From the NCBI RefSeq assembly GCF_042666395.1, contig NZ_JBHTDJ010000004.1, positions 258,158 through 282,157 of the forward strand: 24,000 nucleotides of DNA, given 5' to 3'. The position numbers and the translations under genes are program-made. This DNA comes from Knoellia pratensis. Its GTDB lineage: Bacteria > Actinomycetota > Actinomycetes > Actinomycetales > Dermatophilaceae. Positions 987 to 15,652 of this stretch are shown piece after piece; the stretch's first letter is position 1, and every line of letters starts with the position of its first letter. Below the pieces are notes generated by a model that was given only the letters and a program-made list of their open reading frames with translations, did not search any database and was not told the DNA's origin.

Positions 987-1313
987 ATGCACGAGCTGGC
1001 CATCGCGGAGAGCGTGGTGTCGACGGTGCTCGAACGCACCAGTGGCCGGGTGCGCGTCGTGCGCCTGCGGGTCGGGCGGATGTCAGGAGTGGTGCCGGAC
1101 GCGCTGATGTTCTGCTTCGAGCTCGCCGCCGCGGGCACCTCCCTCGAGAGTGCGACGCTCGAGATCGAGGAAGAGGTGGGGCGCGCGCACTGTCGCGACT
1201 GTGACAGTGACTTCACGATGCGAGATGCGTTCCTCCTGTGCGACTGCGGGAGTGCCGACGTGGAGCTGCTGTCCGGCCGCGAGCTCCAGGTGACCTCGGT
1301 GGAGGTGGCCTGA
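987..1313 (+). CDS. hypA: Hydrogenase nickel-insertion metallochaperone HypA
   Basis: Starts MHELAIAESV, the canonical HypA N-terminal MHE nickel motif. GAGAGG at 974-979 lies 7 nt upstream of ATG 987. The ORF-track start at 918 only adds an Arg/Gly-rich leader. Zinc motif C-R-D-C at 1191-1202 plus C-D-C at 1239-1247. Confidence 0.9.
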   Translation: MHELAIAESVVSTVLERTSGRVRVVRLRVGRMSGVVPDALMFCFELAAAGTSLESATLEIEEEVGRAHCRDCDSDFTMRDAFLLCDCGSADVELLSGRELQVTSVEVA

Positions 1314-1314
1314 G

Positions 1315-2118
1315 ATGTGCAGCACCTGTGGCTGTGGCGAGGCCGACGTCCGTGTGACCACGCTTGACGCCGCAAGGGAGGCCGGACATGGCCACGACCA
1401 CGGACACAGTCATGGACAGGGCCACGGCACTGAGCACCGTCACGACCACGTGCATCTCGAGCCGGACGACGAGCTGCGCACCCACACCCTCGAGCTCGAA
1501 GTCGCTGTGCTCGCCAAGAACGATGGGTTGGCGGCGCGCAACCGGTCCTGGCTGGCGCAGCGCGGCATCACCGCACTCAACCTGATGAGCTCGCCCGGAG
1601 CCGGCAAGACCACCCTGCTCGAACGCACCATCGCCGCGACCGACAGCGCGGTCAGCGTGATCGAAGGCGATCAGGAGACTGTTTTTGATGCCGAGCGCAT
1701 CAAGGCCGCCGGCGCCCGGGCCGTGCAGGTCAACACCGGAGCGGGCTGTCATCTCGACGCCACGATGGTGGCCCGGGCTCTCGAACAGCTGCAGCCGGAC
1801 CCCGAGAGCATCGTGTTCATCGAGAACGTCGGCAACCTGGTGTGCCCGGCGCTCTTCGACCTCGGGGAGCTGCGCAAGGTCGTCGTGATCTCGGTAACCG
1901 AGGGGGACGACAAACCGCTCAAGTATCCCCACATGTTCGCCGCCGCCGACCTGGTCGTCATCAACAAGACCGACCTGTTGCCGTACGTCGACTTCGACAT
2001 CGAGCGACTGGCCGCTGACGCCCGCAAGCTCAACCCCGACGTGCAGCTGATGCCCCTCTCGGCGAAGACCGGAGACAACCTCGAGGAGTGGCTGGCCTGG
2101 TTGGCCCGGCCGGCCTGA
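1315..2118 (+). CDS. hypB: Hydrogenase nickel-incorporation GTPase HypB
   Basis: N-terminal MCSTCGCGE is the CxxCGC high-affinity Ni site. A His-rich tract HGHDHGHSHGQGHGTEHRHDHVH (1387-1455) has 10 His in 23 residues. P-loop SSPGAGKTTLL and NKTD G4 motif are present. The ATG lies 1 nt after the hypA stop. Confidence 0.95.
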   Translation: MCSTCGCGEADVRVTTLDAAREAGHGHDHGHSHGQGHGTEHRHDHVHLEPDDELRTHTLELEVAVLAKNDGLAARNRSWLAQRGITALNLMSSPGAGKTTLLERTIAATDSAVSVIEGDQETVFDAERIKAAGARAVQVNTGAGCHLDATMVARALEQLQPDPESIVFIENVGNLVCPALFDLGELRKVVVISVTEGDDKPLKYPHMFAAADLVVINKTDLLPYVDFDIERLAADARKLNPDVQLMPLSAKTGDNLEEWLAWLARPA

Positions 2119-2196: not shown

Positions 2197-2255
2197 ACAG
2201 ACGACGATCTGCGAACCAGCAGAGGACCGGAACGGCCCTCAGGGAGTTGGCGCAG

Positions 2256-3311
2256 ATGCCCACGGCCGAAGCAGTGAAGGCGGAAGAAACTCTCATCCAC
2301 GTCCTGTGGATCAACGCTGGCCTCAGTTGTGATGGCGACTCCGTGTCGCTGACGGCCGCGACCCAGCCCAGCATCGAGGAGATCGCGCTCGGCTCCCTCC
2401 CTGGGCTGCCCCAGATCGCGGTGCACTGGCCGTTGATCGACTTCGAGTGCGGACCCCAGGGCGGGCGGGACGACTTCCTGGAGTGGTTTCACAAGGCTGA
2501 TCGCGGTGAGCTCGAACCCTTCGTGCTCGTCGTCGAGGGATCCATCCCCAACGAGAAGCTGCACGACGAAGGCTACTGGTGCGGGTTCGGCAACAACCCC
2601 GAGACCGGGCAGCCGATGACGACCAGTGAGTGGCTGGACCGACTGGCCCCGAAGGCCACCGCGATCGTCGCGGTCGGCACGTGCGCGACGTACGGCGGCA
2701 TACACGCGATGGAAGGCAACCCGACGGGCGCGATGGGCGTGCCCGACTACCTCGGATGGAGCTGGAAGTCGAAGGCAGACATCCCCATCGTCTGCGTGCC
2801 CGGGTGCCCGGCACAGCCGGACAACATGGCGGAGACGCTGACCTATCTGCTCTACATGGCCACCGGCCAGGCACCGATGATCCCGCTCGACGAGGCCCTG
2901 CGACCGACCTGGCTCTTCGGGCAGACCGTGCACGAGGGCTGTGACCGGGCTGGCTACTACGAACAGGGCGACTTCGCGACGGAGTACGGCTCGCCCAAGT
3001 GCATCGTCAAGCTCGGGTGCTGGGGCCCGACGGTGAAGTGCAACGTCCCCAAGCGCGGCTGGATGAACGGCATGGGCGGTTGCCCCAACGTGGGCGGCAT
3101 CTGCATCGGTTGCACCATGCCCGGCTTCCCGGACAAGTTCATGCCCTTCATGGACGAACCACCGGGCGGCAAGCTCTCCACGACCACGGTCGGGCTCTAC
3201 GGCAACACCATGCGTCGGCTCCGTCAGGTGACGACCAAGACCTTGGACAAGGAGCCTAAGTGGCGCACGCCCGGCAGGACGCTGACCACGGGGGCCAAGC
3301 GAACCTGGTAG
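2256..3311 (+). CDS. hhyS: [NiFe]-hydrogenase small subunit, group 1h (actinobacterial/high-affinity type), no Tat signal
   Basis: Small-subunit Fe-S ligand pattern: GLSCDGDS, GTCATYGG, VPGCPAQP, HEGCDR, PKC, LGCWGP, KCN, GGCPN, GICIGC. The N-terminus MPTAEAVKAEETLIHVLW has no twin-arginine RRxF motif. The start was moved from the track's TTG 2247 to ATG 2256, which lies 9 nt after AGGGAG. Confidence 0.93.
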   Translation: MPTAEAVKAEETLIHVLWINAGLSCDGDSVSLTAATQPSIEEIALGSLPGLPQIAVHWPLIDFECGPQGGRDDFLEWFHKADRGELEPFVLVVEGSIPNEKLHDEGYWCGFGNNPETGQPMTTSEWLDRLAPKATAIVAVGTCATYGGIHAMEGNPTGAMGVPDYLGWSWKSKADIPIVCVPGCPAQPDNMAETLTYLLYMATGQAPMIPLDEALRPTWLFGQTVHEGCDRAGYYEQGDFATEYGSPKCIVKLGCWGPTVKCNVPKRGWMNGMGGCPNVGGICIGCTMPGFPDKFMPFMDEPPGGKLSTTTVGLYGNTMRRLRQVTTKTLDKEPKWRTPGRTLTTGAKRTW

Positions 3312-3357: not shown

Positions 3358-5148
3358 ATGACGTCGAGGATTCCAGCACCCAGCAGCATGACCGAGGATG
3401 CGAACGGCCTGACCGAGATGGCGTGGGACCCGATCACCCGCATCGTCGGCAGCCTGGGCATCTACACCAAGATCGACTTCAAGCAGAAGGTCGTCGTCGA
3501 GTGCAAGAGCACGAGCTCGATCTTCCGCGGCTACTCGATCTTCATGAAGGGCAAGGACCCGCGCGACGCGCACTTCATCACCAGCCGCATCTGTGGCATC
3601 TGCGGTGACAACCACGCGACCTGCTCCTGCTACGCCCAGAACATGGCGTACGGCGTGAAGCCACCGCACCTCGCTGAGTGGATCGTCAATCTCGGCGAGG
3701 CCGCCGAGTACATGTTCGACCACAACATCTTCCAGGAGAACCTGGTCGGGGTGGACTACTGCGAGAAGATGGTCGCGGAGACCAACCCCGGTGTGCTCGA
3801 GCTCGCGAACACCACAGAGTCGCCGAACGCGGAAGCCCACGGATACAAGACCATCGGCGACATCATGCGGTCGCTCAACCCGTTCACCGGTGAGTTCTAC
3901 CGTGAGGCTCTGCAGGTCAGCCGATGGACCCGCGAGATGTTCTGCCTGATGGAGGGTCGGCACGTCCACCCCTCGACGCTCTACCCGGGTGGCGTGGGCA
4001 CGGTGGCGACGATCCAGCTGATGACCGACTACATCACCCGGCTGATGCGCTACGTCGAGTTCATGAAGAAGGTCGTCCCGATGCACGACGACCTCTTCGA
4101 CTTCTTCTACCAGGCACTGCCGGGCTATGAGCAGGTCGGCAACCGCCGCATCCTGCTGGCCTGCTGGGGTTCGTTCCAGGACCCGGAGCACTGCAACTTC
4201 GAGTACAAGGACATGACCAACTGGGGACGCAAGATGTATGTCACCCCCGGCATCGTCGTGGACGGCAAGCTGGTCACGACCGACCTGGTGGAGATCAACC
4301 TCGGCATCCGGATCCTGCTCGGCTCGTCGTACTACGACGACTGGGAGGACCAGGAGGTGTTCGTGGAGAAGGATCCCCTCGGCAACCCGGTCGACCGGCG
4401 GCACCCCTGGAACCAGCACACCAACCCGAAGCCGCAGAAGCGCGACCTCGACAACAAGTACAGCTGGGTGATGTCACCGCGCTGGTTCGACGGCAAGGAC
4501 TACCTCGCCCTGGACACGGGCGGTGGCCCGCTCGCCCGGCTGTGGACGACGGCGCTGGCCGAGCTCGTCGACATCGGCTACGTGCAGTCGACCGGCCACT
4601 CGGTGAAGATCAACCTGCCCAAGACCGCGCTGAAGGGCCCGGTCGAGCTGGAGTGGAAGATCCCGCAGTGGAGCAACACCCTCGAGCGCAACCGGGCACG
4701 CACCTACTTCCAGGCGTATGCCGCAGCGTGCGCGCTGCACTTCGCCGAGAAGGCGCTGGTCGAGATCCGGGCCGGCCGCACCAAGACCTGGGAGGCGTTC
4801 ACCGTGCCCGAGACGGGCATCGGCTGTGGCTTCACCGAGGCAGTGCGCGGGGTGCTGAGCCACCACATGGTCATCCGCGAAGGGAAGATCGCCAACTACC
4901 ACCCCTACCCGCCGACCCCGTGGAACGCCAACCCGCGTGACTCCTACGGGACCCCCGGGCCCTACGAGGACGCCGTGCAGGGGCAACCCATCTTCGAGGA
5001 GAACGATCGCGAGCACTTCAAGGGCATCGACATCATGCGCACGGTGCGCAGCTTCGACCCGTGCCTTCCGTGCGGTGTGCACATGTATCTCGGAGAGGGG
5101 CAGAAGCTCGAGCTGATGCATTCGCCGACCCAGTCCGTCAGCGGATAG
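3358..5148 (+). CDS. hhyL: [NiFe]-hydrogenase large subunit, group 1h (formerly group 5)
   Basis: The N-terminal active-site motif TSRICGICGDNH (3580-3615) and C-terminal SFDPCLPCGVH (5050-5082) match the class-defining L1/L2 signatures reported for group 5/1h enzymes. A 21-aa tail MYLGEGQKLELMHSPTQSVSG follows the His and is expected to be removed by the endopeptidase. GAGAGG lies 7 nt upstream of ATG 3358. Confidence 0.97.
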   Translation: MTSRIPAPSSMTEDANGLTEMAWDPITRIVGSLGIYTKIDFKQKVVVECKSTSSIFRGYSIFMKGKDPRDAHFITSRICGICGDNHATCSCYAQNMAYGVKPPHLAEWIVNLGEAAEYMFDHNIFQENLVGVDYCEKMVAETNPGVLELANTTESPNAEAHGYKTIGDIMRSLNPFTGEFYREALQVSRWTREMFCLMEGRHVHPSTLYPGGVGTVATIQLMTDYITRLMRYVEFMKKVVPMHDDLFDFFYQALPGYEQVGNRRILLACWGSFQDPEHCNFEYKDMTNWGRKMYVTPGIVVDGKLVTTDLVEINLGIRILLGSSYYDDWEDQEVFVEKDPLGNPVDRRHPWNQHTNPKPQKRDLDNKYSWVMSPRWFDGKDYLALDTGGGPLARLWTTALAELVDIGYVQSTGHSVKINLPKTALKGPVELEWKIPQWSNTLERNRARTYFQAYAAACALHFAEKALVEIRAGRTKTWEAFTVPETGIGCGFTEAVRGVLSHHMVIREGKIANYHPYPPTPWNANPRDSYGTPGPYEDAVQGQPIFEENDREHFKGIDIMRTVRSFDPCLPCGVHMYLGEGQKLELMHSPTQSVSG

Positions 5149-5150
5149 CG

Positions 5151-6068
5151 ATGGGCGAGGTCAAGGGGGCCGAGCAGCTGCGAGCCACGGGCGAGCGCAT
5201 CGACGCGCTGCTGGATGCCAGTGGCTCGGGCGGAGTGGTGGCGCGCGAGCGCGCCGAGGAGCTGGTGCGGCTCGTGGCCGATCTGTACGGCGCGGGACTG
5301 GAGCGCATCCTCGACATCACCTACGACGCGGGGCAGCTCACCGACGAGGTGCTGGCCGCGCTGGCCGCCGACGACCTGGTGGCCAGCCTGCTGCTGGTGC
5401 ACGGCCTCCACCCCTACGACGTGGGCCAGCGCGTGGAGCAGGCGCTCGAGAGCGTGCGGCCCTACCTCGGCTCGCACGGCGGCGACGTCGAGCTTCTCGA
5501 GGTCAGCGACGAGGGCACGGTCCGGCTGCGCCTGCTGGGCAGCTGCGACGGCTGTCCCTCGTCGTCGGTGACCCTCAAGCTGGCGGTCGAGGGCGCGATC
5601 GAGACCGCGGCCCCCGAGATCACCCGCATCGAGGTGGAGGACGCCGAGCCGAGCGGTGCCCAGACGCTCATCCCGATCTCGTCCCTGCGCTCCCGTCTTG
5701 ACGAGGCCCCGGGCACCACCGCGTCCTGGGAGCCGCTTCCCGGCCTCTCGGACCTCAGTGCCGGTGCCATCAGGACGGTCGACGTCAGCGGCACGATGGT
5801 CCTGGTCTGCCGGCTCGGCGACGAGCTGTTCGCCTACGCCGACCGTTGTGCCCGGTGCGAGGGGTCTCTCGATGGCGCAGCCCTGTCGCGACGTCTCGGC
5901 GCAGTGGTGGGCGAGGCCGTGCTGCGCTGCCCGGCTTGCCGCGCCCACTACGACGTACGCCGCGCTGGTGCCTGCCTCGATGACGAGACGCTGCACCTCA
6001 TCCCCGTCCCGCTGCTCACCGATGGCGGCGTCACCTCAGTCGCGGTCGCCACTCCGGTCCCGTCATGA
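5151..6068 (+). CDS. hhyE: Hydrogenase-associated putative Fe-S protein: NifU-like domain fused to a Rieske-fold-like C-terminal domain (HhyE-like)
   Basis: ATG 5151 lies 2 nt after the hhyL stop. The track start 5061 overlaps hhyL out of frame. The NifU C-terminal-type segment is VRPYLGSHGGDVELLEV...LLGSCDGCPSSSVTLK, with CxxC at 5544-5555. The C-terminal segment is LVCRLGDELFAYADRCARCEGSL...LRCPACRAHYD (5847-5948). The position directly after hhyL matches hhyE of Mycobacterium smegmatis. Confidence 0.8.
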   Translation: MGEVKGAEQLRATGERIDALLDASGSGGVVARERAEELVRLVADLYGAGLERILDITYDAGQLTDEVLAALAADDLVASLLLVHGLHPYDVGQRVEQALESVRPYLGSHGGDVELLEVSDEGTVRLRLLGSCDGCPSSSVTLKLAVEGAIETAAPEITRIEVEDAEPSGAQTLIPISSLRSRLDEAPGTTASWEPLPGLSDLSAGAIRTVDVSGTMVLVCRLGDELFAYADRCARCEGSLDGAALSRRLGAVVGEAVLRCPACRAHYDVRRAGACLDDETLHLIPVPLLTDGGVTSVAVATPVPS

Positions 6069-6730
6069 GCGCCCCCGGGGGCTCCCCGCTCGCCTCGCTC
6101 CGACGGATCACCAGCACCCGGCCGGCGCCGGTGGTGGGAGAGCGCTGCGAGATGTGCGCAGCGGCCATCGCGCAGGAGCACCAGCACGTCGTCAACCTCG
6201 AGAGCCGGGTGCTGATGTGCACTTGCCGGGGGTGCTACCTGCTGTTCACCGCCGAGCACGCCGAGCTGCGCTATCGCGCGGTGCCCGACCGCTATCTCTC
6301 GTTCCCCGACTTCGAGTTCGGCGCCCGCGAGTGGGATGAGCTGCAGATCCCGGTCGGGCTGGCGTTCCTGTTCAAGAACTCCGTGCAGAACCGCATCATC
6401 GCGTTCTATCCCGGTCCGGCTGGCGCCACCGAGTCGGAGCTCCCGCTCGATGCCTGGGACCGCATCGTCATGGCCAACACCCAGCTCGACCACCTGCGCG
6501 CCGACGTGGAGGCATTACTGCTGCGCGGTGCCGACCGGGAGCACCCCGACTTCTCTGCACACGTCGTCCCGATCGACGCCTGCTACGAGCTGGTCGGGCG
6601 GTTGCGGTCGCTGTGGCGCGGTTTCGACGGCGGCACCGAGGCGCGCTCGGCGATCGACGACTTCTTCGTGATGGTGGCGCAACGCAGCAGGCCGGCTCCG
6701 CCCGCGCCGGACCTGGCGGGTGTCCCGTGA
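6065..6730 (+). CDS. Conserved hypothetical protein of group 1h hydrogenase clusters (recalled as DUF5947-like) with an N-terminal five-Cys motif
   Basis: ATGA overlap with the hhyE stop (6065-6068). High GC3 and a non-repetitive, globular-looking sequence. The motif CEMC-x20-CTCRGC lies at 6146-6235. The family name is from memory only. Confidence 0.75.
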   Translation: MSAPGGSPLASLRRITSTRPAPVVGERCEMCAAAIAQEHQHVVNLESRVLMCTCRGCYLLFTAEHAELRYRAVPDRYLSFPDFEFGAREWDELQIPVGLAFLFKNSVQNRIIAFYPGPAGATESELPLDAWDRIVMANTQLDHLRADVEALLLRGADREHPDFSAHVVPIDACYELVGRLRSLWRGFDGGTEARSAIDDFFVMVAQRSRPAPPAPDLAGVP

Positions 6731-7368
6731 GCAGCTACGAGTTCACTGTCGTCGACGTCTTCGCCGAACCGTATGCCGCCGCGCCGCAGCTCACGGCGAG
6801 GCTGCGAATCCGGGAGACGAGCGGCGAGACCATCCACGCGATCGCGCTGCGTTGCCAGGTCCGGATCGAGCCGCAGCGCCGTCGCTACGAGGAGAGCGAC
6901 GAGAGCGGCCTACGTGCGCTCTTCGGCGACCGCGACCGCTGGGTCGACACCCTCAAGCCGTTCCTGTGGATGCAGTGCAACTCGATGGTCCAAGGGTTCA
7001 CCGACATCACCGAGGTCGACCTGGCGCTGCCTTGCACCTACGACTTCGAGGTCACCGGCTCGCGCTACCTGCACGCCATCGGCGGCGGTGACATCCCCAT
7101 CGTCTTCCTGTTCTCGGGCACCGTCTTCACCAAGGGCACCAACGGTTTCGGCGTGGTTCAGGTGCCCTGGGACTGTGAGGCCTCCTACCTGCTGCCGGTT
7201 CAGGTCTGGCAGCAGATGATCGCGTCCTACTACCCGAACACCGGATGGATCCGCCTCGACCACGACGTCCTGACCGCGCTGGCCGCTTTCAAGGCCCAGC
7301 ACGGCCTCACCACCTGGGAAGAGACGGTGCAGAACCTCCTCGCCACCAGGGACGGAGCCCAGCCATGA
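6727..7368 (+). CDS. Conserved hypothetical protein of group 1h hydrogenase clusters (recalled as DUF6084-like)
   Basis: GTG 6727 forms a GTGA overlap with the upstream stop (6728-6730). The track start 6613 would overlap the upstream gene by 118 nt with an Arg-rich leader. The product starts VSSYEFTVVDVFAEPYAAAPQL... and looks beta-rich. No motif I can name. Confidence 0.72.
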   Translation: MSSYEFTVVDVFAEPYAAAPQLTARLRIRETSGETIHAIALRCQVRIEPQRRRYEESDESGLRALFGDRDRWVDTLKPFLWMQCNSMVQGFTDITEVDLALPCTYDFEVTGSRYLHAIGGGDIPIVFLFSGTVFTKGTNGFGVVQVPWDCEASYLLPVQVWQQMIASYYPNTGWIRLDHDVLTALAAFKAQHGLTTWEETVQNLLATRDGAQP

Positions 7369-8732
7369 CCCCGTCGCCGAGCCTCGATCACGTCCGGGCC
7401 ATCGCGGACGCCGTGCTCTACGAGGGCTACCTGCTCTACCCCTACCGCGCCAGCTCCTCGAAGAACCAGTCCCGCTGGCAGTTCGGCGTCCTCGGCCCAC
7501 CCAAGGCATCGGCCGCGAGCTTTGCCGAGGAACCGGACCTGTCCTTCCAGTGCCTGCTCGCTCCTGCGACAGGTGCGGCCACCATCAGCGCGCACCTGCG
7601 CTTCCTCCAGCTCCAGGTGCGTTCCGTCGAGCGGTACGCCGACGGCGACTTCGAGCCGGTGGCCGAGATGGTTGTCGACGGACTGTCCGTGCTCAGCTGG
7701 GAGGAGGCCGTCGAGTGCGAGGTCGCCCTCTCGCCGTACCACGTGGGCGGTCCACCTGTCGTCACCACCGTGGAGATCCCGGGCGGTGAGGAGGTCGAGC
7801 CGGTCCTGGACGCAGCGGGCGCGACGGTGGGCCGGATCCTGCGCCGACGGTTCCCGTTGCGCGCAGATGTCAGCGTGGGCGCAGAGGCCGACGACGGGTT
7901 CACCCGGCTCTGCGTGGCGGTGACCAACGCCCACCCCGACGAGGTCCACGGCAAGGACGACGCGATCCGGTCGTCGATGATCGGCACCCACGTGCTCGTG
8001 GTCGCCGACGGGGTCAGCTTTGTCTCGCTGCTGGAACCCCCCGAGGACGCGGCCGACGCGGCCGGGAGGTGCACGCAGCGGCGGTGCTTCCCAGTGCTGG
8101 TGGGACCTGTTGGCTCGAGCGATGTGGTGATGGGCTCGCCGATCATCCTCTACGACCACCCCGAGATCGCCGAGGAGAGCGCCGGCGCCCTGTTCGACTC
8201 GACCGAGATCGACGAGATACTGAGCCTGCGCGTGATGACGATGACCGACGCCGAGAAGGCCGAGGCCCGGGCCACCGACCCGCGCGCCGCCGCCATCATC
8301 GACCGGTGTGACGCGATGTCACCCGAGACGCTGCGCGACCTGCACGGGGTGCTCCGTGACCCGAACCGGGTCCAGGCACCTGCGGTCGGCACAGAGTTCG
8401 ACACCGGCGACGTCCCCTGGTGGGACCCGGCCACGGACGAGAGCGTGCGGCCCGACACCGACAGCGTGGTCATCGACGGCATGAAAGTGGCGCGCGGCAG
8501 CCTGGTGAAGGTCCACCCGTCTCGGCGGGCCGACGCCCAGGACCTGTTCTTCGCCGACCAGGTGGCCCGCGTCACCGCCGTGCTGTCCGACGTCGACGGC
8601 AGCACGCATGTCGCGCTGGTGCTGGTCGAGGACCCCGCGGCCGACCTGCACGAGCAAGTCGGGCGCTTCTTCTACTTCGCCCCGGATGAGCTCGAACCAC
8701 TGGACCAGGCACGAGAGGAGAGTCACCCATGA
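7365..8732 (+). CDS. Conserved hypothetical protein, 455 aa, function unknown
   Basis: ATG 7365 forms an ATGA overlap with the upstream stop, and GGAG lies about 7 nt upstream. It starts MTPSPSLDHVRAIADAVLYEGYLLYPYRASSSKNQSRWQFGVLGP. High GC3 throughout. No recognisable catalytic or cofactor motif. Confidence 0.75.
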   Translation: MTPSPSLDHVRAIADAVLYEGYLLYPYRASSSKNQSRWQFGVLGPPKASAASFAEEPDLSFQCLLAPATGAATISAHLRFLQLQVRSVERYADGDFEPVAEMVVDGLSVLSWEEAVECEVALSPYHVGGPPVVTTVEIPGGEEVEPVLDAAGATVGRILRRRFPLRADVSVGAEADDGFTRLCVAVTNAHPDEVHGKDDAIRSSMIGTHVLVVADGVSFVSLLEPPEDAADAAGRCTQRRCFPVLVGPVGSSDVVMGSPIILYDHPEIAEESAGALFDSTEIDEILSLRVMTMTDAEKAEARATDPRAAAIIDRCDAMSPETLRDLHGVLRDPNRVQAPAVGTEFDTGDVPWWDPATDESVRPDTDSVVIDGMKVARGSLVKVHPSRRADAQDLFFADQVARVTAVLSDVDGSTHVALVLVEDPAADLHEQVGRFFYFAPDELEPLDQAREESHP

Positions 8733-8848
8733 GAACCGTTGGCCGGCTGACCACCATCGTCGGCGTCTGCATTGCAGCAGTCGCAACGTTCGTCGGGGTC
8801 CGTTCGATCCCCGACATCAAGCGTTACCTCAAGATCCGCCAGATGTGA
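8729..8848 (+). CDS. 39-aa single-pass membrane micropeptide (not in the ORF track): MRTVGRLTTIVGVCIAAVATFVGVRSIPDIKRYLKIRQM
   Basis: ATG 8729 forms an ATGA overlap with the stop of the 455-aa gene. GAGAGGAGAG at 8713-8722 lies 6-8 nt upstream. There is one hydrophobic helix (about L7-V24) and then a basic tail KRYLKIRQM. Stop TGA at 8846-8848. I vaguely recall similar small proteins annotated in actinobacterial hydrogenase loci, but this is unverified. Confidence 0.55.
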   Translation: MRTVGRLTTIVGVCIAAVATFVGVRSIPDIKRYLKIRQM

Positions 8849-9431: not shown

Positions 9432-9911
9432 ATGAGAGTGCTGGTGGCCGGCATCGGCAACCTCTTCTGCGGCGACGACGGGTTCGGTCCCGAGGTCGTC
9501 CGCCGACTCGCCGCGTCCGGGACCCTGCCCGAGGAGGCGCGTGCGGTCGACTACGGCATACGCGGCATGCATCTGGCCTACGACCTTCTCGAGGGGTACG
9601 ACGCGCTCGTGATCGTCGATGCCCTGCCAGGCGATGGCGACCCGGGCACGCTCGCCGTGCTCGAAGTAGGACAAGGTGACCTCGGTGCCGGGGCGTTCGA
9701 CCCGCACGGCATGGCTCCGGTCGCCGTCCTGGCCAGCCTCTCCGACCTGGGCGGCACCCTTCCGCCGACCTACGTCGTGGGGTGCCGGCCGGCCGATCTC
9801 GGCGACGGGATCGGGCTCTCGGACGAGGTCGAGGCCGCGGTGCCCGAGGCGATGGAGGTCGTGCTCGCCGTACTCCGCGAACGCTTGCCCGCACTGGACG
9901 GGGCCGGCTGA
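9432..9911 (+). CDS. hupD: [NiFe]-hydrogenase large-subunit maturation endopeptidase (HyaD/HupD/HybD family)
   Basis: MRVLVAGIGNLFCGDDGFGPEVV carries the family GxGN-x4-DDGxG motif. Also present: ...LVIVDALPG... and ...FDPHGM.... About 159 aa, as expected for this family. Confidence 0.9.
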   Translation: MRVLVAGIGNLFCGDDGFGPEVVRRLAASGTLPEEARAVDYGIRGMHLAYDLLEGYDALVIVDALPGDGDPGTLAVLEVGQGDLGAGAFDPHGMAPVAVLASLSDLGGTLPPTYVVGCRPADLGDGIGLSDEVEAAVPEAMEVVLAVLRERLPALDGAG

Positions 9912-10153
9912 TGTGCCTCGGGATCCCTGGCCAGGTCGTGCGAGTCCTGGAGGGCAACGCCGGGATGCTCGCCCTCGTCGACGTGCTCGGTGCGCAGCGG
10001 CCGGTCAACCTCGGGATGCTCGAGGACATGGCGGTCGAGCCGGGCCAGTGGGTGCTGATCCACATGGGCTTCGTCGTCGAACGTGTCGACGAGGCCGTGG
10101 CCGAGAAGGCGATGACCGCCCTCGAGATGATGGGTCGCGCGCGCGATGGCTGA
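9911..10153 (+). CDS. hypC: Hydrogenase assembly chaperone HypC/HupF family (copy 1, 80 aa)
   Basis: Starts MCLGIPGQVV, the invariant HypC N-terminal Cys after Met. ATG 9911 shares its A with the protease stop TGA (9909-9911). The earlier track start 9782 lies in protease-overlapping Arg-rich sequence. Confidence 0.9.
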   Translation: MCLGIPGQVVRVLEGNAGMLALVDVLGAQRPVNLGMLEDMAVEPGQWVLIHMGFVVERVDEAVAEKAMTALEMMGRARDG

Positions 10154-12425
10154 GCAACGGATCCGAAGCAGGTTCGAGGTCTCCGGTCTCGTGCAGGGGG
10201 TCGGCTTCCGCCCGTTCGTCTACGTGACAGCGAGCGAGCTCGGCCTCACCGGCAACGTGGCCAACACGCCGTCCGGGGTGGTGATCGAGGTGGAGGGTGC
10301 CCCGGCCGCGGTGGCAGAGCTGGGACACCGCCTGGCCCACGCCCCACCGCCGCTGGCCCACATCGAGGAGGTCACCGAGTCCCGGCAGCCACCGCGTGGC
10401 GGCACCGGCTTCAGCATCGAGGACTCCGCGGCCGGCGAGGGCCGCACCTTGGCATCGCCGGATGTCGCGACCTGCGACGACTGCCTCCGCGAGCTTGCCG
10501 ACCCCGACGACCGCCGTCACCGCCACCCCTTCATCACCTGCACCAACTGTGGCCCGCGGTTCACGATCATCACGCGCCTGCCCTACGACCGGGCCGCGAC
10601 CACCATGGCTGGGTTCGCCATGTGCGACGCCTGCCGCCAGGAGTACGACAACCCGGCGGACCGCCGCTTCCACGCCCAGCCGATCGCCTGCCGCGACTGT
10701 GGCCCCACCCTCGAGCTTGTCGGCTACGGGCCGCGGGCGGAGGGCGACGACGCCGTATGCCGTGCGCGTGACCTCCTCGCCCAGGGGCTGATCCTGGCTG
10801 TGAAGGGGCTGGGCGGCTACCACCTGGCGTGCGACGCCCGCAACGAGACGGCCGTCGCCGAGCTGCGCCGACGCAAGCAGCGCGGCGACAAGCCGTTCGC
10901 GGTGATGGTTCGCAGTGCCGAGGTGGCCGAAGGGCTCGTGACCATGGGCGAGGCCGAGCAGCGACTGCTCACCGGCCATCGCAAGCCGATCGTGCTGCTG
11001 CCCCGTGCCGGCCCCCAGGGGCTCGCTCCTTCCGTCGCGCCGGGCAATCCGGATCTCGGACTGATGCTTCCCTACACTCCGCTACACGTGTTGTTGTTGG
11101 AGGCGCCCGGTACCGACGCGCTGGTGATGACCTCTGGCAACCTCTCCGGCGAGCCGATCGTCACCGACGACGACGCGGCCCGCGAGCGGCTGTCCACGAT
11201 CGCCGATGCCTGGCTGCGGCACGACCGACCCATCCACGTGCCGTGCGACGACTCGGTCGCCCGCTTCGTCACCGGCGTCGAGCTACCCCTACGCCGGTCG
11301 CGCGGTCACGCACCCCTACCGGTGGCCCTCCCGTTCGAGGTCGACCCGGTCCTGGCCGTCGGAGCAGATCTCAAGAACACCTGCGCGCTCGCCTCGGGTC
11401 GCTATGCGTGGTTGAGCCAGCACATCGGCGACCTTGACGACCTCGCCACCCAGGCGGCGCTGACCGCGTCGGAGACCCACCTCGAGGAGCTCACCGGCAT
11501 ACGGCCTCAGGCCCTCGTCGCCGACGCGCACCCGGGCTACCGCTCCAGCCGTTGGGCGCGCGAGCATGCTGGCGGACGAGAGGTCCGAACCGTCCAGCAC
11601 CACCACGCGCACGTGGCCTCGGTGATGGGGGAGCACGGTCTGGGCAACGACGACACCGTCATCGGCGTCGCGTTCGACGGCACCGGCTACGGCACGGACG
11701 GCGCGATCTGGGGCGGTGAGGTTCTGGTCGCCGGCTACAAGTCGTTCCGGCGGGCCGCCCACCTGGGCTACGTGCCCTTGGCCGGTGGTGACGCCAGCGT
11801 GTTGCGGCCCTATCGGATGGCGCTGGCACACCTGTGGGCAGCCGGCATCGCGTGGTCCGACGACATCGCGGCCGTGGCGGCGTGCCCGAAGACGGAGCGA
11901 GGAGTGTTGGCCCACCAGCTGTCGACCGGTCTGGGGTGCGTGCCCACATCGAGCATGGGCCGCCTCTTCGACGCCGTGTCCTCTCTCGTCGGGGTCCGGC
12001 ACACCGTGGACTACGAGGCCGAGGCCGCGATCGAGCTCGAGTCCCTGGCGCGCTCCGTGCCGGTCCCGGATCCCTACCGTTTCGAGATCCTGGCACCCCA
12101 CGGCGGCCCCGCGATCGCGGACCCGGCACCCGTCCTGCGGGCAGTCGTGGACGACCTGCGTCGTGGACAGCCGGCAGCCCATGTCGCGGCGCGTTTCCAT
12201 GCCGGTGTCGCGACCCTCGTCGCTGATCTCGCCGACCAGGAAAGACGGCAGACCGGTCTGGACGTCGTCGTCCTGGCCGGCGGGGTGTTCCAGAACGCCC
12301 TGCTGCTCGACAGCTCCACCCAGCTGCTGGAGGCGCGTGGCTTCACGGTTCTGCGCTCCCGGCTGCTTCCACCCCACGACGGCGGCATCGCCTTCGGACA
12401 GATCCTGGTCGGCTCGCAGAGCTGA
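10146..12425 (+). CDS. hypF: Carbamoyltransferase HypF
   Basis: Acylphosphatase-like N-terminus (VSGLVQGVGFRPFVY). Two zinc-finger pairs: CDDC...CTNCGPRF and CDAC...CRDCGP. YrdC-like segment (KGLGGYHLACDA, KQRGDKPFAVM) and a Kae1-like C-terminal domain. 759 aa. 8-nt overlap with hypC. Confidence 0.97.
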   Translation: MAEQRIRSRFEVSGLVQGVGFRPFVYVTASELGLTGNVANTPSGVVIEVEGAPAAVAELGHRLAHAPPPLAHIEEVTESRQPPRGGTGFSIEDSAAGEGRTLASPDVATCDDCLRELADPDDRRHRHPFITCTNCGPRFTIITRLPYDRAATTMAGFAMCDACRQEYDNPADRRFHAQPIACRDCGPTLELVGYGPRAEGDDAVCRARDLLAQGLILAVKGLGGYHLACDARNETAVAELRRRKQRGDKPFAVMVRSAEVAEGLVTMGEAEQRLLTGHRKPIVLLPRAGPQGLAPSVAPGNPDLGLMLPYTPLHVLLLEAPGTDALVMTSGNLSGEPIVTDDDAARERLSTIADAWLRHDRPIHVPCDDSVARFVTGVELPLRRSRGHAPLPVALPFEVDPVLAVGADLKNTCALASGRYAWLSQHIGDLDDLATQAALTASETHLEELTGIRPQALVADAHPGYRSSRWAREHAGGREVRTVQHHHAHVASVMGEHGLGNDDTVIGVAFDGTGYGTDGAIWGGEVLVAGYKSFRRAAHLGYVPLAGGDASVLRPYRMALAHLWAAGIAWSDDIAAVAACPKTERGVLAHQLSTGLGCVPTSSMGRLFDAVSSLVGVRHTVDYEAEAAIELESLARSVPVPDPYRFEILAPHGGPAIADPAPVLRAVVDDLRRGQPAAHVAARFHAGVATLVADLADQERRQTGLDVVVLAGGVFQNALLLDSSTQLLEARGFTVLRSRLLPPHDGGIAFGQILVGSQS

Positions 12426-12453: not shown

Positions 12454-12738
12454 ATGTGTCTAGCAGTCCCAGGTCGCGTCCTGTCCGTCGAGGACCAGGA
12501 CGGTACGACCATGGCGCAGGTCGACTTCGGCGGACTCCGCAAGGAGGTCTGTCTGGCCTACATCCCCGACGTACAGATCGGTGAGTACGTCATCGTGCAT
12601 GTCGGTTTCGCGATCCAGCGGCTCGACGAGAAGTCGGCGCTGGGCACGTTGGCCAACTTCGAGAAGCTCGGCATCCTCGAGGAAGAGTTCGGCGACGGCT
12701 TTGCCCTCGCCGCCAAGCAGGCAGGAGAATCGCAATGA
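12454..12738 (+). CDS. hypC: Hydrogenase assembly chaperone HypC family (copy 2, 94 aa, C-terminal extension)
   Basis: Starts [19 protein letters not shown] lies 6 nt upstream of ATG 12454. The rest of track ORF 11716..12738 is out-of-frame overlap with hypF. ATGA-type overlap with hypD. Confidence 0.9.
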
Positions 12739-13862
12739 AGTACCTCGACGAGTTCAGTGACCCGGTGCTGGCCGGCAAGCTGGTGGACCAGATCCACGCA
12801 GTGACCACTCAGCCCTGGGCGATGATGGAGGTGTGCGGCGGGCAGACGCACTCGATCATCCGACACGGCATCGACCAGCTGCTGCCCGAGGGCCTCGAGA
12901 TGATCCACGGCCCGGGCTGCCCGGTCTGTGTGACGCCGCTCGAGCTCATCGACAAGGCCTTGGCGATCGCCGAGCAGCCGGGTGTCATCTTCTGCTCGTT
13001 CGGCGACATGCTCCGAGTGCCCGGCAGCAGCAAGGACCTGTTCTCGATCAAGAGTGCCGGCGGTGACGTACGGGTCGTCTACAGCCCGCTCGACGCGCTC
13101 AAGCTGGCGCGCGAGAACCCCGACCGGCAGGTCGTGTTCTTCGGCATCGGGTTCGAGACCACGGCGCCGGCCAACGCGATGACCGTCTACCAGGCGAAGA
13201 AGCAGGGCATCGCGAACTTCTCCCTGCTGGTCTCGCACGTGCTCGTCCCACCGGCCATCGCGGCGATCATGGAGTCCCCGAGGTGCCGGGTGCAGGCGTT
13301 CCTCGCGGCCGGCCACGTGTGCAGCGTGATGGGCACATCGGAGTACCCCGCTCTGACCGAGAAGTACAAGGTGCCGATCGTGGTCACGGGGTTTGAGCCG
13401 CTCGACATCCTCGAGGGCATCCGGCGCACGGTGATCCAACTCGAGTCGGGTCGGCACGAGCTGGAGAATGCGTACTCCCGGGCCGTCACCGCCGAGGGAA
13501 ACGTGGCGGCGATGGCGATGCTGCGCGACGTCTTCGAGGTGACCGACCGCACGTGGCGCGGTATCGGGATGATCCCGCAGAGCGGGTGGAAGCTGTCCGA
13601 GCGATACGCCGACTACGACGCGGAGACACGGTTCTCGGTCAGCGACATCCACACCGACGAGTCGGCTCTGTGCCGCTCTGGTGAGGTGCTCCAGGGCCTC
13701 ATCAAGCCGCACGAGTGTGCGGCGTTCGGCAAGGAGTGCACGCCACGCAAGCCACTGGGCGCGACCATGGTCTCGTCCGAGGGCGCGTGCGCGGCCTACT
13801 ACACCTACCGGCGCCTCGACCACCTGGAGCTGTCCGAGACCCGCCTGGTGGAGAGCCGATGA
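12735..13862 (+). CDS. hypD: Hydrogenase Fe(CN)2CO assembly protein HypD
   Basis: [10 protein letters not shown]..., [21 protein letters not shown] and FETTAP motifs. A C-terminal Cys-rich region (CRSGE...[12 protein letters not shown]) is typical of the HypD [4Fe-4S] site. Confidence 0.97.
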
Positions 13863-14917
13863 GCAACGACCTGGACTTCGAGGGCTGGGTCTGTCCGCTG
13901 CCGCTGCGCGACACCCCGACGATCGTGATGGGCCACGGGGGCGGTGGAGCCATGTCCGGCGAGCTGATCGAGCAGCTCTTCCTGCCGGCCTTTGGGGGCG
14001 CTGCCCGCGCCGAGCTCGGCGACTCGGCCGTTCTGGAGGTGCCCGCCGGCCGGCTGGCCTTCTCGACGGACTCGTTCGTGGTGAAGCCGATGTTCTTCCC
14101 GGGTGGTTGCATCGGTGACCTCGCGGTCAACGGCACCGTCAACGACCTGGCGATGGTGGGGGCAACTCCCCTCTATCTCTCGACGGCGTTCATCCTGGCC
14201 GAGGGCACCTCGATGACGGACATCGGCCGCGTCGCGATGGCCATCGGCAAGGCGGCCGAGGTCGCGGGAGTGCAGCTCGTCACCGGTGACACCAAGGTGG
14301 TGGACAGTGGCAGCGGTGACGGCATCTTCATCAACACTGCCGGCATCGGCGTCATCCCCGACGGCATCGACATCTCGCCGGCTCGGGCCCGGGTCGGCGA
14401 CGTCATCCTGGTGAGCGGCGACATCGGCGTGCACGGCATCGCGGTGATGAGCTGTCGTGAAGGGCTCGAGTTCGGCACGACGATCGAGAGCGACTGCGCG
14501 CCTCTGCACGGACTGGTCGCCGACATGCTTGCCACAGGGGTCGACGTGCACGCGCTGCGGGACCCGACCCGCGGGGGAGTCTCGGCCACCCTCAACGAGA
14601 TCGCCAAGGCTTCCGGCGTGGGCATCGAACTGGTCGAGAAGGACCTGCCGATCCCGGCCGAGGTCAAGGACGCGTGCGGCCTGCTCGGCCTTGACCCGCT
14701 CCAGGTCGCCAACGAGGGCAAGCTGATCGCGATCGTGGCGGCCGAGGATGCCGACGCGGTGCTGGCCGCCATGCATCAGCACCCGCGCGGTGCGGGTGCG
14801 CGCCGCATCGGCACGTGCGTCGGGGAGCACCCGAAGATGGTCGTGGCCCGGACCGGTCTCGGCGGGACCCGCGTCGTGGATCTGCCGATCGGCGAGCAGC
14901 TACCGAGAATTTGCTGA
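13859..14917 (+). CDS. hypE: Hydrogenase maturation carbamoyl dehydratase HypE
   Basis: ATG 13859 forms an ATGA overlap with the hypD stop. The PurM/AIR-synthase-like repeat pattern is present. The protein ends in the diagnostic HypE C-terminus ...LPRIC. Confidence 0.95.
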
Positions 14918-14929
14918 GCGTCTGTTGCC

Positions 14930-15652
14930 ATGAGTGACGAGGGGGCTCTGAAGTTCGCGCGCTACGCCTACCCGCCCAACGAGCTCGGCTACTGCGGTCC
15001 CGACGGTGCGCACGAGATGCTCGTGCCCGGCGCGGTGGCCGAGATCGAACGGCGGGCGCGGCTGTTCGACGGAGCCTGGGTCTACCTGGAGTTCCTCGCC
15101 GGGGTGCTCGGCACCGACGACCCTCTGTCGACGCCGGTGGTGGAGGCGTACTGGATCGGCAACGACCTGCTCTCCGCCGTTGATCCGGCCGCCCTCGTCG
15201 ACCATCTGAGGGTGGCGTTCGACGGTCAGGTCGGCGGGACGTGGCGGGAGTCGGCCGACCGGGCTCGCGCGCACCACAGCTACCAGGTGTTCGAGGTCTA
15301 TCCATGGGCGGCGATGCTGCTTCGTGGGCTGCCGCCCGGTCCTGCGGTGTCGGTGCTCGACCGCTGCCGGATTCGGTCGGGGGTCGTCAGCGAGGTCGAC
15401 GGCGAGTGGGTGGTGGTGACGTCCCGCCTCCTGACCTGGGACGGTGGCTCCTTGACCCCGTCGCCTCACCGGGCCGAACGCGCCCGGTGGTCGGTCGACG
15501 GCAGGAGCCTGCTGTCGCCACCGGACGTGGGCGACACGGTGGCGCTGCACTGGGACTGGGTGTGTGACGTCCTCACGCCAGATCAGGCCGACCGCATCCA
15601 GCAGATCGAGGAGACCCAGCGAACCGCCGTTGGGCTGGACAGGCAGGCGTAA
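14930..15652 (+). CDS. Conserved hypothetical protein at the 3' end of the hyp operon (recalled as DUF6390-like)
   Basis: ATG lies 12 nt after the hypE stop. It starts MSDEGALKFARYAYPPNELGYCGPDG. High GC3 and a globular composition. No catalytic motif I can name. The family name is from memory only. Confidence 0.72.
   Translation: MSDEGALKFARYAYPPNELGYCGPDGAHEMLVPGAVAEIERRARLFDGAWVYLEFLAGVLGTDDPLSTPVVEAYWIGNDLLSAVDPAALVDHLRVAFDGQVGGTWRESADRARAHHSYQVFEVYPWAAMLLRGLPPGPAVSVLDRCRIRSGVVSEVDGEWVVVTSRLLTWDGGSLTPSPHRAERARWSVDGRSLLSPPDVGDTVALHWDWVCDVLTPDQADRIQQIEETQRTAVGLDRQA

Follow-up and report, generated by a model that had tools for sequence, protein, structure and literature searches.

A complete group 1h [NiFe]-hydrogenase gene set lies on the plus strand of the 24,000-nucleotide (nt) stretch of Knoellia pratensis analysed here (contig NZ_JBHTDJ010000004.1, positions 258,158 to 282,157; hereafter the window; G+C about 68%), and four genes, here called A, B, C and D, stand between hhyE and the large-subunit endopeptidase gene hupD (Table 1). 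Sequence comparison securely identifies this block as the local copies of the recognised, uncharacterised PHG067-069 / hhaABC set together with a DUF6893 peptide. We propose that A to D, with HhyE and HupD, would constitute a group-1h-specific assembly (maturation) complex working with the protease, a reading in which we place about equal belief and doubt. Physical complex formation and the maturation role are what we infer from genetic linkage: the genes keep their place beside the hydrogenase, are translationally coupled, and in some lineages are fused to one another and to the protease.

The original prediction, made from the letters of the window, had treated the four genes as undescribed. 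This does not hold, as A, B and D match Pfam DUF5947, DUF6084 and DUF6893, and A to C appear in the literature as PHG067-069 or hhaABC. PHG067-069 are genes of C. necator H16 (PMC4377017), and in T. roseum the three are cited as "conserved hypothetical proteins hhaABC" on the structural operon (PMC6776052). PHG067 / MSMEG_2717 was earlier floated as an electron acceptor (PMC6883350), and papers of 2025-26 (PMC12319191, PMC13332983) still list the genes as coding sequences of unknown function or hypothetical proteins. A literature search, whose coverage did not extend to Schäfer 2013 and Greening 2015, found no functional studies of A to D, and the available part of the supplementary mass-spectrometry table of Cordero 2019 does not list MSMEG_2715-2718. 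Gene C belongs to a large family: 7999 of 8000 scored candidate clusters (90% identity) reached E<=0.001, and at least 3811 representatives at 50% identity had E<=1e-3. Its closest database protein, 97% identical, is a hypothetical protein from a Knoellia sp. metagenome-assembled genome. BLASTP detected no internal homology between B and C.

Searches of Pfam and NCBIfam at E<=0.01 gave no match of A to D to the Hyp (HypA-F) or HycI models, nor to the HyaE, HyaF/HupH, HybE or HoxR rubredoxin models. Fer4, Rieske and cytochrome b matches were likewise absent from A to D in Pfam. The earlier statements that the four carry no motif assignable to the Hyp pathway and that this pathway is complete in the locus therefore stand, the latter because HypA, HypB, HypC, HypD, HypE, HypF and HupD were all found.

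The closest described counterpart is PHG066-PHG069 in the "actinobacterial" (group 5/1h) hydrogenase cluster on the C. necator H16 megaplasmid pHG1, where DUF5947, DUF6084 and C-family genes recur in the order small subunit, large subunit, NifU, A, B, C, protease. PHG064-070 are annotated as small subunit, large subunit, NifU-family, DUF5947, DUF6084, hypothetical and maturation protease, with overlaps of 4, 8, 4 and 4 nt. By tblastn, A is 41% identical to the DUF5947 gene on NC_005241 (E 1e-36), and B and C also give high-scoring segment pairs on pHG1. The two loci differ in three respects: HhyE of the window has an extra Rieske-fold domain that the 192-amino-acid (aa) PHG066 lacks; D lies between C and hupD in the window and, unannotated, after the protease on pHG1; and two acidic open reading frames (ORFs) precede hupD in the window, unlike pHG1. 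The set of hhyE and hhaABC, named in the style of HydDB, corresponds to MSMEG_2718-2715 in M. smegmatis and to trd_1876-1874 in T. roseum.

Conservation was assessed in the best 80 species-level loci encoding a C relative (at least 594 candidate stretches were confirmed) and in two added proteobacterial plasmid loci, C. necator H16 pHG1 (L081) and a Methylocystis parvus plasmid (L082). When the window proteins were used as tblastn queries, the gene order hypB-hhyS-hhyL-hhyE-A-B-C-(D)-hupD was collinear in all 80 loci, with B present in 80/80, hhyE in 75/80 and hupD after C or D in 78/80. hhyL was found in 74 of the 80; the remaining six start less than about 3 kb from C, all absences lie at contig ends, and hhyL-hhyE-A-B-C were collinear in 74/74 contigs with enough upstream sequence. 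Both plasmids and the metagenome contigs likewise place the genes after hhyS-hhyL-(hhyE) and before hupD. Metagenome members only 39-40% identical to C were flanked by small- and large-subunit, DUF5947/DUF6084, HycI and hyp genes, and in the 80 loci, the plasmids and the metagenome contigs A-B-C never turned up outside a hydrogenase cluster. Co-occurrence with hhyL had been put forward as a check, and A-B-C proved to lie beside group 1h hydrogenase genes throughout; the 74 collinear contigs and the divergent metagenome members mark the genes as specific companions of this enzyme.

The four 4-nt overlaps that were said to join hhyE to A, B, C and D agree exactly with the sequence (Table 1), as do the gene lengths of 221, 213, 455 and 39 aa. 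The DUF6084 model alignment begins at residue 1 of the 213-aa form of B, and homologue alignments of C begin at residues 4-10, in support of the respective start codons. Each junction was then scored, locus by locus, for a start codon at the 4-nt overlap position. The overlap was present at B>C in 80/83 loci, at A>B in 66/80, at E>A in 55/78 and at C>D in 26/50 (most actinobacterial loci use the -4 position there); the corresponding counts were 0/68 for hhyS>hhyL and 8/77 for hhyL>hhyE. Since the overlaps recur across loci, coupling is a conserved trait of the block rather than a side effect of high G+C, which supports the translational coupling of the four genes originally proposed.

The further claim, that such overlaps are the hallmark of subunits of one enzyme complex, is weakened. 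ATGA overlaps occur in the same window at hypC>hypD (12735) and hypD>hypE (13859), so this junction style also marks transient maturation proteins and is not diagnostic of subunits. On L081, L082, L087, L090 and L092, which have no D between the two genes, C runs into hupD itself with a 4-nt overlap, and the coupled chain thus contains a bona fide maturation enzyme; D follows hupD, again with a 4-nt overlap, in L085, L087, L092 and L214. The fusions of C to HupD and the lack of redox ligands in B and C, both described below, count against the claim as well.

The Cys motif noted earlier in the 221-aa product of gene A is C28-x2-C31-x7-H39-x-H41-x10-C52-x-C54-x2-C57 plus C173 (CxxC...HxH...CxCxxC), and none of the six Cys and two His varies among 99 sequences that reach down to 40% identity (100% conservation). 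A is thus probably a metal-binding protein, its ligands being compatible with Fe-S, Zn or Ni, among which the sequence does not discriminate. Conservation analysis of B gave no conserved redox-ligand or cluster-like Cys/His pattern, and the conserved Cys and His of C are H209, C236 and H327 only (111 sequences), with no Cys/His cluster. One lineage (L092/L093) is missing A and retains B, C, HupD and D, and its HhyE-like protein is without any cysteine. That protein has 186 aa (L092 6583-7143).

Across the 80 loci, identity to the proteins of the window had a median of 87% for HhyS and 86% for HhyL, 55% for HhyE, 62% for A, 55% for B, 55.5% for C and 51% for D, and 58% for HupD, 60.5% for HypF and 58.5% for HypB. 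A to D thus diverge like Hyp proteins and unlike HhyS/HhyL. Searches with phmmer and profiles against all chains of the PDB, Huc complexes included, gave no relevant match for A, B or C; the only PDB relative of HhyL is 5AA5 (HofG), the one solved group 1h entry. According to the 2016 structure paper, the deposited 5AA5 enzyme reportedly consists of HofK/HofG alone. The AlphaFold2 model of C (predicted local distance difference test, pLDDT, 76) has a conserved N-terminal helix, a beta-sandwich at about residues 58-260 (pLDDT >90), a helical, acidic stretch and, at the C-terminus, a small barrel; Foldseek against the PDB gave nothing more than an SH3-like resemblance at this barrel, for example to PetP. 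DrmA, the top Foldseek match (E 3e-6), was taken as spurious (TM score 0.23, root-mean-square deviation 24 Å). The AlphaFold2 model of A is alpha/beta (pLDDT 67.5) with a low-confidence Cys-rich region, and Foldseek against the PDB gave nothing below E 0.05.

Gene fusions link the module to the protease. Among the 150 best C-family representatives, seven long proteins carry a C-terminal HycI/HupD domain. The C::HupD fusion was verified on contigs L084, L085/L086 (two sequencing runs), L214 (52 kb), L215 and that of protein P0332. The linkers are only 10-30 residues long, and the fused proteases keep intact the motifs GDDGFG, xDA and DAH. A B::C (DUF6084::C) fusion, P0377, occurs on two contigs from two sources (L087/L088), where the product of gene A is 375 aa long, with 187 additional residues at its N-terminus that are similar to the N-terminal half of HhyE (28% identity, E 1e-6). 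The HhyE-N::A fusion on L088 (3035-4162) is without the NifU CxxC. Between them, the fusions connect the pairs E-A, B-C and C-HupD, and the Cys-free HhyE and the CxxC-less HhyE-N::A fusion suggest that the HhyE N-terminal domain may be non-redox and structural.

P0260 (L083) was rejected as a clean C::HupD fusion; an out-of-frame D-like ORF, MRHVWLWVVAGLALLVALTSGPDLLRYLRIRNM, lies at about 2440-2545 of L083 within the apparent linker, so that either this is a genuine overlapping gene or C has lost its stop codon, whether in evolution or through the assembly. On L215 (3112-3335), two tandem DUF6893-like ORFs of 34 and 39 aa follow the C::HupD fusion.

On the P0332 contig (JGI 3300056388), C::HupD is flanked by hypA on one side and by a gene for a SIS::HypC fusion on the other; a hemerythrin gene comes next, with the small-subunit gene behind it. 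Neither A nor B adjoins C::HupD here, and the HypC/HypA block is upstream of the structural genes. The adjoining hemerythrin gene bears on a different explanation, namely that the module serves O2 protection, repair or regulation, for example by re-reducing or rebuilding damaged clusters or by redox sensing, and neither first assembly nor electron transfer. It would accord with an enzyme that works in air, with the NifU-like partner and with the conserved metal ligands of A. No specific evidence speaks for repair, however, Pfam and NCBIfam detected no regulatory domains in A to D, and the endopeptidase fusion ties C to a one-off maturation step; we regard this explanation as highly improbable.

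Gene D encodes one hydrophobic helix (Kyte-Doolittle 19-residue maximum 1.98) followed by a basic tail, and the transmembrane character ascribed earlier to this 39-aa peptide is accordingly well matched by its predicted profile. Its C-terminus is an invariant cytoplasmic-type basic tail, ...RSIPDIKRYLKIRQM-COOH, with the consensus RS[IVL]PD[IA]xRY[LM]K[IM]RxM-stop. An ORF scan found a D-type peptide after C in 74/83 loci, and tblastn recovers several of the remainder. Outside Actinomycetota, D has 32-45 residues and is placed after the protease (C>hupD>D). Six-frame scans of the plasmids located unannotated D-like ORFs between the protease and hypF or hypC, at L081 10214-10315 on pHG1 (NC_005241 about 66753-66854; MKGFLKYLVLPALVVALLANIKDIRRYIRIRSM) and at L082 9995-10093 on the Methylocystis parvus plasmid (MGLFEIILGLLILALIAFNFRDIVRYIKITMM). 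On account of these two ORFs, a supposed absence of D from organisms with a soluble enzyme, such as C. necator, was rejected.

A search for the D family with a degenerate DNA pattern for the tail retrieved at least 120 metagenome contigs, and every ORF that it hit was D-like. Hydrogenase-cluster genes were detectable on 99 of the contigs, though many contigs are only 1-2 kb long. Peptides ending in ...R.M lay in hydrogenase clusters, on the same strand, in 83 of 102 cases, as against 3 of 18 for a sister class ending in ...IS.M, some of which occur in unrelated neighbourhoods. Contigs of this class (PD..RY[IM][KR]IS[ST]M; L101, L131, L142, L193, L206 and others) had no detectable hydrogenase gene nearby or a divergent small-subunit gene. 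The DUF6893 tail motif is therefore not strictly confined to hhy clusters. Directly 3' of D, many non-actinobacterial hhy clusters carry a gene of the YceI family (PF04264, a polyisoprenoid-binding family; examples in Table 1), and in L214 a PadR-YceI gene is also nearby. This neighbour is a possible lipid or quinone link.

These features of D invite a division of labour in which HhyE, A, B and C would be transient assembly factors and D, with YceI where present, would stay on as a membrane tether or lipid-quinone interface. In Actinomycetota D precedes hupD (C>D>hupD) and in other groups it comes after (C>hupD>D), yet its tail PD..RY.K.R.M-COOH is invariant, YceI lies 3' of D in many loci, and the membrane association of Hhy resists cholate (10.1101/769216). 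Yet pHG1 has a D-like peptide, as does the Methylocystis plasmid, although PMC4377017 describes a cytoplasmic enzyme in C. necator, and the ...IS.M sister class occurs apart from hydrogenase genes. We consider such a division quite improbable.

An assembly role for the whole set has to be weighed against the idea of the original prediction, a role in the mature enzyme, in which HhyE, A, B, C and D would be permanent subunits on HhySL that link it to the membrane and the menaquinone pool; in the proposed arrangement A, with HhyE, would transfer electrons, B and C would provide a scaffold and D would serve as the anchor. Several observations lean this way and count against assembly. The genes belong to the structural operon, where they lie between hhyL and hupD, and are translationally coupled; T. 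roseum induces them along with hhyLS, 5.5-fold versus 12.6-fold (PMC6776052). HhyE, the first member of the chain, reportedly co-migrates with HhyL/HhyS on native gels, and PHG067 / MSMEG_2717 has been put forward as acceptor (PMC6883350). The fully conserved Cys/His set of A could hold a redox cluster, and the physiological electron acceptor of Hhy remains an open question in the field. M. smegmatis Hhy is tightly membrane-bound, resisting cholate, with subunits that have no transmembrane segments (bioRxiv 10.1101/769216), and D is a membrane peptide that is followed by YceI in several lineages. In addition, A to D have no sequence similarity, and the A and C models no fold similarity, to known maturation factors (Pfam, NCBIfam, Foldseek), and a gene fusion is evidence of functional linkage that does not itself specify the function.

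Permanent membership in the enzyme nevertheless appears rather unlikely to us. C is recurrently fused to or overlaps the maturation protease; B and C have no redox ligands; A is absent from a lineage that keeps B and C, and Cys-free HhyE-like proteins exist; no PDB chain matches A, B or C; and the module diverges like Hyp proteins, at about 55% identity. Methylacidiphilum fumariolicum, moreover, carries hhyS, hhyL and hupD on consecutive locus tags (PMC5364354), its genome is without hhyE (PMC6688271), and its enzyme is named a functional high-affinity hydrogenase in the title of PMC7174314, that is, it works apparently with no module in its cluster. The more specific idea that HhyE-A-B-C-D are, beyond any aid to maturation, the physiological partner through which group 1h enzymes are wired to membrane and quinone pool is one we judge unlikely. 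The Cys6His2 centre of A, with HhyE, would then take electrons from HhyS; B and C would be the scaffold, the DUF6893 peptide, with YceI in other phyla, would anchor the assembly at the lipid/menaquinone interface, and the protease fusion would reflect assembly on the B/C scaffold.

We favour the assembly complex over an electron relay because B and C are without a conserved Cys/His cluster and A is missing from the L092/L093 lineage. C is fused or translationally coupled to HupD, B is coupled or fused to C, and A, the sole probable metal binder, has the same kind of tie, by coupling or fusion, to HhyE with its NifU-like domain; each of these pairings supports assembly. So do the Hyp-like evolution of the set, with A, or the cysteines of HhyE, lost while B, C and HupD are kept; the placement of C::HupD among maturation genes on the P0332 contig; the lack of any PDB chain matching A to C while 5AA5 matches HhyL; the ATGA style shared with hypC>hypD>hypE; and the functional Methylacidiphilum enzyme, apparently without the module in its cluster. 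The complex would act on the HhyL/HhyS precursors and would not persist as an electron- or quinone-coupling module. A may handle the metal (Fe-S, Zn or Ni) as partner of HhyE, and B and C may form a heterodimeric chaperone or scaffold that docks the protease. Such docking would coordinate cofactor insertion, C-terminal cleavage of HhyL and its assembly with HhyS in air, and D would place or hold the machinery, or its product, at the membrane.

The O2-tolerant group 1d [NiFe] hydrogenases have accessory proteins of a comparable kind: HoxL/O/Q/R/T/V of R. eutropha, HyaE/HyaF of E. coli and HupG-K of Rhizobium. These are small, non-Hyp proteins, each set required by a single hydrogenase type, whose genes lie in the structural operon ahead of the protease or hyp genes; their supposed task is to adapt maturation to O2, and HoxR is a Cys-motif metalloprotein. 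By analogy, it is these proteins that the module most resembles, in function and position only. They share no homology with A to D, which match none of the HyaE, HupH, HybE and rubredoxin models. To our knowledge, group 1h small subunits lack a twin-arginine translocation (Tat) signal, so that the Tat-proofreading roles of HoxO/Q would not apply, and we know of no endopeptidase fusion described for the group 1d accessory systems.

HypC-HypD-HypE, a transient assembly complex, are likewise ATGA-coupled in the window (12735, 13859); their sequences are unrelated to A to D, and they are universal among [NiFe] hydrogenases whereas A to D are group-1h specific. HucM, the scaffold of the mycobacterial group 2a Huc complex (PMC10017518), is likewise an additional protein without catalytic function whose gene neighbours those of a high-affinity hydrogenase. 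It co-purifies with its enzyme, whereas A to D are known here from genes alone, and it gives no PDB sequence match to A, B or C and no Foldseek match to the models of A and C. The analogy to the Huc scaffold drawn in the original prediction is weakened by this, as is the idea of subunits of the enzyme complex. What stands of that interpretation is that the genes are real, coupled, non-Hyp companions of group 1h hydrogenase; that they are undescribed does not.

Table 1. Features of the hydrogenase locus. Coordinates refer to the window unless another locus is named.
Feature	Position	Strand	Family match or remark
hypA	~987-1313	+	
hypB	1315-2118	+	
hhyS, group 1h [NiFe]-hydrogenase small subunit	2247-3311	+	presumed client of the module
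hhyL, group 1h [NiFe]-hydrogenase large subunit	3358-5148	+	presumed client of the module; matches 5AA5 HofG, E=0
hhyE, NifU-like domain and C-terminal Rieske-fold domain (4 Cys); upstream member of the chain	5151-6068	+	Pfam NifU 4e-23, Rieske 2e-5
ATGA, hhyE stop / A start	6065-6068	+	
gene A, 221 aa, DUF5947 = PHG067 / MSMEG_2717 ("hhaA")	6065-6730	+	Pfam 1.3e-71, 240 bits (cut-off 25)
GTGA, A stop / B start	6727-6730	+	
gene B, 213 aa, DUF6084 = PHG068 ("hhaB")	6727-7368	+	Pfam 6.4e-94, residues 1-209, 314 bits (cut-off 25)
ATGA, B stop / C start	7365-7368	+	
gene C, 455 aa = PHG069 ("hhaC")	7365-8732	+	no Pfam or NCBIfam model
ATGA, C stop / D start	8729-8732	+	Shine-Dalgarno-like GAGAGGAGAG just upstream
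gene D, 39 aa, DUF6893 microprotein	8729-8848	+	Pfam 3.3e-14, 53 bits (cut-off 24.6)
acidic ORF 1, 68 aa	8883-9089	+	low complexity
acidic ORF 2, 104 aa	9115-9429	+	low complexity
hupD, [NiFe]-hydrogenase large-subunit C-terminal endopeptidase	9432-9911	+	Pfam HycI 1.4e-16, TIGR00072 1.4e-35
hypF	10146-12425	+	
hypC	12454-12738	+	
hypD	12735-13862	+	
hypE	13859-14917	+	
DUF6390 gene	14930-15652	+	5.5e-81; directly 3' of hypE
YceI-family gene after D, L087	4361-4873		
YceI-family gene after D, L092	10121-10651		
YceI-family gene after D, L214	8044-8565		

The remaining features of the locus lie outside the block. Acidic ORFs 1 and 2, between D and hupD, are rich in Pro, Gly, Asp and Glu, and each has a good Shine-Dalgarno sequence; neither matched a family in Pfam or NCBIfam, and tblastn matches were found in 22/80 and 16/80 loci, respectively, sometimes at a different position in the cluster. 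The DUF6390 gene, detected in 64/80 loci, is a further conserved unknown of such clusters. A scan of the cluster for promoters and terminators gave nothing exceeding shuffle expectation. On both plasmids RefSeq names the small subunit of the group 1h enzyme "hydrogenase expression protein HypE" (L081 3423-4478, L082 3550-4629), and the same mislabel has been noted for R. equi (PMC13332983).

Group 1h hydrogenases account for a large share of the uptake of atmospheric H2 by soil, and how they are assembled in air and by which route their electrons reach the respiratory chain are open questions in the field. The window itself adds just one further copy of a known module; among the unexplained genes that accompany these enzymes, hhaABC and DUF6893 are the most consistent. 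Comparison across loci provides leads to their function: the protease fusions, the invariant ligands confined to A, and the near-universal, often unannotated membrane microprotein with its fixed C-terminal tail. Work on these leads would also aid the heterologous production of O2-insensitive, high-affinity hydrogenases.

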